Part shown: positions 16,672-17,669 of the stretch, piece after piece
Layout: the number at the start of each line of letters is the position of its first letter
How positions within the stretch are numbered: the first letter of the stretch is position 1
NCBI GenBank assembly: GCA_964510585.1
Contig: CAZECW010000171.1
Location: 1 to 17,669 of the forward strand
Source of the DNA: an uncultured archaeon
GTDB taxonomy: Archaea > Asgardarchaeota > Jordiarchaeia > Jordiarchaeales > Jordiarchaeaceae
Reading direction: 5' to 3'
Length of the DNA stretch: 17,669 nucleotides
The notes under the pieces: model-generated
Told to the model about the DNA's origin: nothing
What the model saw: only the letters and a program-made list of their open reading frames with translations
Databases searched by the model: none
Position numbers and translations under genes: made by a program

Positions 16672-17466
16672 TTATTCGTTGGAACCATCTATTTTAATAT
16701 TGGAATCGGTGGGGTGGCCATTTCTGTGTTTTTGATTTTCTTCTTTTGAACTATTTTTTTGGGACTCGAAATATTTGCTTAAATGTCTAATGGGCGCGTA
16801 GAAGATTTGGGGTGAGGAACGGATGCGTCCTCCAATTACAGTTAGTTGTCCTACGTCTTTTTTCAGCCAACCTACAAGTTCATGGACTACGATGTCCCGA
16901 GGAGCTTCACCAACCTCTTCCACATGTCCCAGTAAAGCTACCGAGAGTGCGCCTAGTAGGGAAGATAGAATAAATTGGAAATCTAACCCCTCGAAGGATA
17001 AAACTGGTACTCTAGCGGATATTCCGTACTGAGACCATTCCAGAGTTAGGGACAATTGCTTTTGTACAAAAAAGTCTGCAAACAGTCCTCCAAGGGCTGA
17101 TGCGATGCCAGAGGCAATAGAAGTTATAACCGCCACACTTGCCAAGTAGGTGGAGGCGGGCTTAGGATATGATAGTTTAGCTGCAATATTTAGAGTCGTC
17201 AGGTCTGTCCCCGCATTTGACATGCCCAAAAGCAAGCTCAAAACAAATAGAAGTGGTAGACTTAAAACATGCTTTTCGGGGAGGGTGGTGAATGTCCAAG
17301 CAAAAATAGTAATTACGAATACGCCAGCGCTCAACGAAAGCACGGGCTTATTGCCAAACCTATCGGTTAACTTCCCAAATGGCCCCATAAAATAAATGTT
17401 AGAAATTCGGGTAACTACCGTGAAAAGCATAACATAGGCTATATTCAGATCTAAGACTGAAAGCAT
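16672..17466 (-). pseudogene. C-terminal half (264 codons) of an MFS transporter gene interrupted by an IS200/IS605-type insertion
   Basis: MFS motif-A-like GPFGKLTDRFGNKPVL and about 6 hydrophobic helices are present from ATG 17466 onward. No N-terminal half follows upstream in frame (TAG at 17584-17586), and codons 1-35 of the track ORF are IS right-end sequence. Confidence 0.75.
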
Positions 17467-17659
17467 TTGACACTCTCCGCGACTAAAGTCGGGCGATTCT
17501 TGCTTCTGGCTCATCGGGAGCCTTCGAAGCAATGGGTGTGCCACCACCCAGTTAACACGCCCTTCCCTCAAAGGGAACGGCGTCTATGTTGGCACCCTCA
17601 TGGGGGCTGCGTCTTGTTTAGCCTCCTTGAGCCCAAGCCAAACCCTTCAGCTACCAACA
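17447..17659 (-). ncRNA. Putative TnpB omegaRNA (right-end scaffold plus ~20-nt guide from the MFS flank)
   Basis: Dense base-pairing visible by eye: three-way junction 17587-17659 and hairpins at 17557-17583, 17533-17550, 17500-17532 and 17474-17496. Loop TTTGA is complementary to the terminal TCAA. The position at an IS605-type right end is where omegaRNAs originate. tnpB itself is not in the window. Confidence 0.6.
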
Positions 17660-17669
17660 ACTATTAGTA
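17467..17669 (-). mobile_element. Right end of an IS200/IS605-family element (continues beyond the window)
   Basis: The minus strand ends ...AAGAATCGCCCGACTTTAGTCGCGGAGAGTGTCAA. It shows GAAT (17496-17499) at the 5' foot of a bulged hairpin (CCCGAC-TTTA-GTCG-C-GG), 10 nt of spacer including the terminal TCAA (17467-17470), and a translation ESPDFSRGECQ typical of such ends. GAAT/TCAA is the IS608 right-end guide/cleavage pair. Confidence 0.85.

Follow-up and report, generated by a model that had tools for sequence, protein, structure and literature searches.

A gene-less IS608-like mini-transposon with a putative TnpB omegaRNA core, expanded in the genome of an Asgard archaeon

The DNA analyzed here (the window) is a stretch of 17,669 nucleotides from the genome of a hot-spring Asgard archaeon. 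Near its right end the minus strand carries the C-terminal 264 codons of an MFS transporter gene (16672-17466; Pfam MFS_1, E = 1.3e-9), directly preceded by a 203-nucleotide segment that runs into the contig end (17467-17669, minus strand). BLAST matches to this segment, together with complete copies aligned with their flanks, define it as the right part, about two-thirds, of a gene-less mini-transposon of the IS200/IS605 type, which we term family A. The search returned 131 matches in the 3.78-Mb, 217-contig genome, most of them 95-98% identical and many situated at contig ends, and the number of family A copies in the genome is about 75-90. In the aligned complete copies (27-30) the left end lies about 80 nucleotides upstream of the position corresponding to 17665, and conservation runs about 80 nucleotides past the end of the window and stops sharply on both sides; these limits and the mapped left and right ends imply that the element is 275 nucleotides long. 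As the contig end cuts the window copy, its left 76-80 nucleotides or so, comprising the left end and the promoter region, lie beyond 17669, and the left end of this copy is absent from the assembly. The right boundary falls at 17467, where the element ends in TCAA.

The termini of the family are highly uniform. An invariant TTAC precedes the left end in nearly all of 93 cases, a few diverged ends reading TTAT, TCAC or CATA, and the sequence 5' of this tetranucleotide is unrelated among them. At the other extremity 88 right ends close with GTGTCAA (found in all 72 family copies that were read), beyond which the flanks are unrelated from the first base on. Near-identical subterminal hairpins are present at the left and right ends, with AAAG located 5' of the left one and GAAT 5' of the right one. 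The 275-nucleotide complete copies contain no protein ORF, and an antisense open frame survives in 19 of 35 copies. The IS608 element of Helicobacter pylori uses a TTAC target, has a TCAA right end, carries AAAG and GAAT 5' of its left and right hairpins respectively and produces no target duplication; in this element GAAT pairs with TCAA and AAAG with TTAC. All of these features recur in the mini-element, whose end layout we take to be that of IS608, though it differs in being non-autonomous and archaeal. The stretch is a PATE or MITE, namely a protein-free derivative of an IS608-like IS200/IS605 insertion sequence. In BLAST searches of 400 genomes of the phylum the full element was found in this genome only, and the same-genus genomes share with it just the terminal hairpin or short segments of the core. 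The presence of about 80 dispersed copies at 95-98% identity, with none in sister genomes, points to recent mobility, and family A represents a recent, species-specific burst. A second gene-less family (family B; about 335 nucleotides, 4-5 copies, about 84% identity) was recognized by the same layout of left end, core and right end (L040-L044, at C58:28280-28577, C32:13023-13320, C107:6962-7253, C21:127-418 and C121:23157-23467); its long hairpin H4 (see below) resembles that of the element on contig C81.

The insertion of the mini-element split the MFS gene. The ATG at 17466 is no start codon: it specifies a Met inside a gene of about 527 codons, and the orthologues are open for 527-530 amino acids in three same-genus genomes (labelled Candidatus Jordarchaeia/Freyarchaeota and including Jordarchaeum madagascariense), in which the junction reads ...GTTTAC|ATGCT.... 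The empty site in these three sister genomes indicates that the element inserted 3' of TTAC without target duplication. The N-terminal half of the gene was found on another contig (G000:C172:10349-11146), where it ends in TTAC as expected. After this TTAC the contig continues with 137 unique nucleotides (G000:C172:11147-11283; L115:248-384) that are unlike the left end of the family, and of which positions 46-137 recur in three sister genomes; this tail could stem from another insertion at that TTAC or from a join made in assembly. On the other side of the element the right flank (17447-17466, minus strand) is the resumption of the interrupted MFS gene, and would serve as a guide if transcription reads through the right end.

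The original prediction described a series of minus-strand helices in this segment, all of which we recovered in the window copy. At the 5' side UGUUGGUA (17659-17652) pairs over 8 nucleotides with UGCCAACA (17594-17587), forming a helix that we denote P1. Four hairpins follow, which together make up a 119-nucleotide core: H2 (ACGCC...GGCGU, 17557-17583), with a conserved purine-purine mismatch in its stem and a variable loop; H3 (UGGGUG/CACCCA, 17533-17550); H4 (UUGCUUC...GAAGCAA, 17500-17532), which ranges from about 25 to about 100 nucleotides in length among relatives; and, behind GAAU at 17499-17496, the subterminal right-end hairpin H5 (17495-17475; 17475-17499 with GAAU), which bears a UUUA tetraloop and in single-stranded DNA is the recognition hairpin of TnpA. 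In the window copy a change (CGCC for CUCC) breaks one pair of this terminal hairpin. The core closes with UGUCA-A (17467-17472), whose last four bases, UCAA (17470-17467), form the cleavage motif of the right end. As had been claimed, each of the three minus-strand frames is interrupted between 17584 and 17666 (stops at 17666, 17663 and 17600 in frame 0, at 17653 and 17620 in frame 1, and at 17649 and 17586 in frame 2). RNAfold predicts P1 and the four downstream hairpins with a minimum free energy of -81.5 kcal/mol (z = -3.43); at z = -3.35 the antisense strand is nearly its equal, and folding energy by itself therefore settles neither the strand nor a function. Searches of Rfam recovered no family at the gathering threshold, and a permissive search gave only chance-level miRNA hits with E of at least 0.5.

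In the unedited MAFFT alignment of related sequences the stems did not line up, which left RNAalifold with a poor consensus; it was replaced by a hand-set structure, a covariance model and model-guided realignment. The model, R1 (119 positions, 36 pairs), was derived from families A and B and two tnpB-linked right ends. It finds matches in 23 of 61 Asgard genomes, and many of these matches coincide with the 3' end of a TnpB ORF (310-443 amino acids; L067, L107, L093, L065, L063, L081, C8 and C81); the R1-linked ORFs contain the Pfam OrfB_IS605 and TNB domains. The proposal of an omegaRNA-type scaffold at an IS200/IS605 right end is thereby sustained, in that the segment is homologous to structured tnpB 3' ends across Asgard archaea, and its right 119 nucleotides with their four hairpins can be assigned, by homology, as a probable TnpB omegaRNA core. 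The four hairpins covary strongly among 61 distinct related sequences in the model-guided alignment. Paired cells amount to 88.3% as against 40-52% with slid partners, and the covariation score is 0.361 as against at most 0.10 for the slid-partner controls, a large margin even for an alignment that is fitted to the model and thus favours the structure. Changes on both sides were seen in 36 of 41 pairs, including every pair of H2 (10 of 10 across the 61 sequences), of H4 and of H5 (all 8); in H3 covariation extends to 5 of 6 pairs, with 94.8% of cells paired. G-U pairs are frequent (43, for instance, at a single position of the candidate pseudoknot); with the other strand as the RNA they would turn into A-C mismatches, and they thereby identify the strand as the minus strand of the window, that is, the sense strand of tnpB. 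The 3' end of the scaffold at TCAA coincides with the mapped boundary of the element, so that the flank directly adjoins it.

Within family A paired positions are about half as variable as unpaired ones (0.29 versus 0.54 variants per position). Pair-keeping variants of the stems number 9 of 14 against 8.0 expected in one count and 8 of 24 against 8.0 expected in another, which is the expectation of neutral drift, and the copies of this family may simply be too young to have decayed. Family B and independent mini-elements of sister genomes keep the whole core (100-170 nucleotides), which exceeds by far what TnpA needs. The original prediction further held that the scaffold does not overlap an intact tnpB tail; this stands insofar as there is no intact tail, but frame 2 from 17583 reads a decayed TnpB C-terminus (GRVNWVVAHPL...); the scaffold is what remains of a tnpB tail and was not added to one. 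The decayed frame continues in frame into the C-terminal half of the MFS gene, giving an ORF of 299 amino acids (16672-17571, minus strand); this in-frame join is probably an accident with a 1-in-3 chance, and the ORF could yield a truncated transporter.

A pseudoknot had been proposed between the UUGA loop of H2 and the terminal UCAA. The complementarity is real in the window copy and is not maintained in other copies: no part of the element varies more than this loop, with 9 variants among 74 copies and UUGA missing from 20 of them, and on this account the pairing is unsupported. Pairing of the H2 loop with the terminus occurs in 84.9% of cells, with variation that only breaks pairs, and the loop is non-complementary to the terminus in the tnpB-linked relatives on C8 and C81 and in family B. 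A conserved candidate, well placed if not proven, is a pseudoknot of 5 base pairs between UGGCA in the loop of H3 (17543-17539) and the terminal UGUCA (17472-17468), which would be laid out as in ISDra2. UGGCA is present in 78 of the 81 family H3 loops read, and across families the two strands are paired in 94.6% of cells; they are nearly invariant, with wobble-compatible changes and one double change, and the support for this pseudoknot is conservation and not covariation. In the cryo-EM structure of the ISDra2 omegaRNA (Nakagawa et al. 2023, PMC10097598) positions -6 to -2 form a pseudoknot with the first stem loop of the core, a UUUA tetraloop occupies -20 to -17, and the region 5' of the core is dispensable. 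In the scaffold of the window UGUCA lies at -6 to -2 and the UUUA tetraloop at -21 to -18. The two RNAs share an order of parts: a first stem with its pseudoknot (a candidate one in the window), a long-range stem around a variable one, a stem capped by a UUUA tetraloop, and the guide; by this analogy H3 would be the counterpart of stem 1 of ISDra2, the base of H4 that of stem 2, the variable top of H4 that of stem 3 and H5 that of stem 4. There is no sequence similarity between the two, and they differ in the loop of the pseudoknot (6 nucleotides in the candidate here, 19 in ISDra2), in the additional, well-covarying hairpin H2 that precedes the core here, and in the target (TTAC here, TTGAT in ISDra2).

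Upstream of H2 the mini-element contains a family-specific 5' domain (17587-17659, minus strand) with P1 (17659-17652/17594-17587), a GCUG/CAGC pairing, a 9-base-pair hairpin (17643-17616) and a CCC/GGG pairing, previously read as an extra junction domain. These helices are present, and the most divergent copy (L048) folds exactly as the proposed three-way junction; however, the domain of the window copy folded alone attains only z = -1.14, with 26 of 200 shuffles folding as well, and the copies of family B share no common fold in this region. Within family A P1 displays one compensatory (double) change and the 9-base-pair hairpin varies only via wobble pairs, variation that is indistinguishable from drift. 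We detected no homologue of the domain elsewhere in the genome or in 400 Asgard genomes. Its local and end-free global alignments with the tnpB coding region upstream of the core are no better than those of shuffles, the only bases common to both being a few next to H2 (AACAU).

The position of the predicted promoter bears on how much of this domain would enter a transcript. In the autonomous element a TATA box, TATATTGA, ends 20 nucleotides before the ATG of tnpA, a spacing typical of leaderless archaeal mRNA and one base pair shorter than in the mini-element. There the homologous box, TATATAAA, ends about 20 nucleotides before the 9-base-pair hairpin, which places the predicted transcription start near 17643-17639. 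The outer (5') strands of P1 and of P2 (GCUG) are probably upstream of this start, from which we infer that the three-way junction cannot form in the primary transcript. Two mini-elements of sister genomes possess the left-end hairpin, a TTTAAATA/TTAAATAT TATA box and, exactly 25 nucleotides later, H2, and lack the 5' domain. These minimal elements (L090:1501-1633 and L098:1501-1617, plus about 100 nucleotides upstream, in two same-genus genomes) are a promoter fused directly to the omegaRNA core. In the only RNA-labelled run, a metatranscriptome (word share 0.07), two low-depth contigs at about 3.5x match part of the scaffold and then diverge, and they demonstrate neither transcription nor transcript ends.

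The alternative offered in the original prediction, a non-autonomous derivative with tnpB elsewhere in the genome, agrees with the tnpA and tnpB relatives that we identified: a Pfam profile search of the genome uncovered five TnpB loci and four loci encoding a Y1 transposase (Y1_Tnp). The autonomous type is represented by its left part on C169, C7 and C162, with the left end, tnpA (129 amino acids, Y1_Tnp E = 9e-35) and the N-terminus of tnpB, and by its right part on C8, C45, C54 and C152, with the C-terminus of tnpB and the right end. Over its first 62 or so nucleotides the mini-element hardly differs from the tnpA-tnpB element that begins on C169, its last 124 show 75-79% identity to the right 113 nucleotides of the autonomous elements, and the right-end hairpin is common to the mini-element and the tnpB elements on C8 and C81. 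The cognate tnpB of this genome is not in one piece, a contig end breaking the gene exactly at the RuvC-II motif. The R1-linked TnpBs read G-D/N/R-L where canonical TnpBs have E-D-L, with Gly replacing the RuvC-II Glu. The clade with this Gly (TnpB ORFs in L067, L107, L093, L065, L063, L061, L081 and G000:C81) also shows an invariant Glu three residues before the Thr-Ser motif of the zinc-finger region, and the TnpB encoded on C204 of the same genome has the canonical Glu-Asp-Leu and is without an R1-type RNA. The R1-linked TnpBs match the RuvC-II-rearranged clades of Altae-Tran et al., for which a rearranged but active site has been predicted by modelling (PMC10691335). In an AlphaFold model of the fused ORF on C81 the TnpB portion is modelled with confidence and resembles Cas12f, TnpB and Fanzor2; the partner clade is predicted to adopt the TnpB/Cas12f/Fanzor2 fold. 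This ORF (G000:C81:5075-6745, minus strand; L118:176-1846) is a single frame of 557 amino acids with a Y1 TnpA (31-128) followed by a complete TnpB (OrfB_IS605 299-413, TNB 435-496); an R1-type omegaRNA and the right end lie 3' of it, and it looks like a fused transposase-nuclease gene.

PATEs often encode omegaRNAs that are used in trans (Meers et al. 2023, PMC10055086). The closest parallels to our element are the omegaRNA PATEs of Geobacillus stearothermophilus (PMC10055086), which likewise have no protein gene, have ends matching those of autonomous relatives, keep an omegaRNA scaffold at the right end and would need TnpA and TnpB in trans. The present case differs in its host, an Asgard archaeon, in the far greater number of copies (about 75-90 in 3.8 Mb), in a likely partner TnpB with Gly at the position of the RuvC-II Glu, in a promoter that is apparently of archaeal TATA type and derived from tnpA, and in the extra family-specific 5' segment of about 75 nucleotides. 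The sotRNAs of Halobacterium salinarum (sense overlapping transcripts; Gomes-Filho et al. 2015, PMC4615843) are archaeal non-coding RNAs from the 3' end and right end of tnpB elements. They arise at the 3' end of IS1341-type tnpB by processing of the transcript of an intact gene, with which they overlap (PMC4615843), whereas the mini-element has lost the gene and retains no more than a decayed frame.

Based on these observations we consider it highly probable that the window holds part of a gene-less IS608-like PATE or MITE carrying an omegaRNA, with TnpA and TnpB acting in trans, its transcription and use by TnpB being the presumptive parts of this reading. The Y1 transposase TnpA of autonomous copies would move the element as single-stranded DNA via its two hairpins, while the retained promoter of the insertion sequence, with the TATA box inherited from tnpA, would give rise to a transcript that spans the scaffold and runs on into the flank. 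This RNA would then fold into H2-H5, and UGGCA in the loop of H3 would form the pseudoknot with UGUCA at the scaffold's end. Supplied in trans by the autonomous copies, TnpB would bind the RNA and trim its 5' end; guided by the flank, the nuclease would cut the TTAC-adjacent empty site after excision, and recombination following the cut would restore the element.

The main competitor of this proposal, which we regard as unlikely, is that the element is only a mobilisable relic of a young family, moved by TnpA through its DNA hairpins, whose helices are remnants of a tnpB 3' end and have no guide role any more. Such a relic would fit the neutral share of pair-preserving variants within family A, the two low-depth contigs of the RNA-labelled run, which establish no transcription, and the broken pair in the terminal hairpin of the window copy. 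However, TnpA requires just a subterminal hairpin and a cleavage motif, and yet families A and B and several independent mini-elements of sister genomes retain the full core of 100-170 nucleotides with covarying stems; the halved variability of paired positions and a TATA box that, in several elements, lies as far upstream of the scaffold as expected for a promoter likewise argue against a mere remnant. Considerably less probable still is that the window copy terminates a full-length element with tnpB, or a larger composite one, whose genes lie past the end of the window, an idea to which the truncation by the contig end, with the left part unseen, and the divergent unique sequence after TTAC on C172 lend some room. 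Against it, all three frames are closed within 80 nucleotides of the window end, the 27-30 complete copies place the left end about 80 nucleotides upstream of 17665, and the window copy is 97-98% identical to complete copies over its whole visible length. A structured RNA directly upstream of an ATG might also suggest a cis-regulatory leader, a riboswitch-like 5' UTR of the downstream transporter gene, but the segment recurs about 80 times, each time between different flanks, and has no Rfam match, so that we assign this reading almost no probability; it is refuted by the empty sites and by an ATG internal to a 527-amino-acid gene that is uninterrupted in sister genomes.

Returning to the interpretation of the element as an omegaRNA-bearing mini-transposon, this kind of element has already been described (PMC10055086) and the one in the window is a clean example of it; no new principle is revealed. 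Its boundaries, empty site and covariation document a massive expansion of guide-RNA mini-transposons in the genome of an Asgard archaeon (Jordarchaeia), and with R1 a covariance model is available for the omegaRNA that accompanies Asgard TnpBs of the clade in which Gly replaces the RuvC-II Glu. The reassignment of the pseudoknot matters for reconstituting this thermophilic TnpB-omegaRNA pair. More speculatively, and to our minds rather improbably, the roughly 80 promoter-plus-scaffold cassettes might constitute dispersed stand-alone guide RNAs for the Glu-to-Gly RuvC-II TnpB, with the 5' segment as a new module for stability, processing or regulation, and the whole serving either to regulate host genes or, in the manner of a gene drive, to secure retention. 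If so, every guide would be tied to one place in the host genome, for example the inside of the MFS gene, and the copies would not be decaying debris.

The mini-element has also left its mark on the assembly. About 85 contig ends stop within it (for example those of C2, C6, C10, C11, C54, C99, C117, C138, C146 and C193), at two preferred positions around element positions 135-140, and the repeat is a main cause of the fragmentation of this genome assembly.
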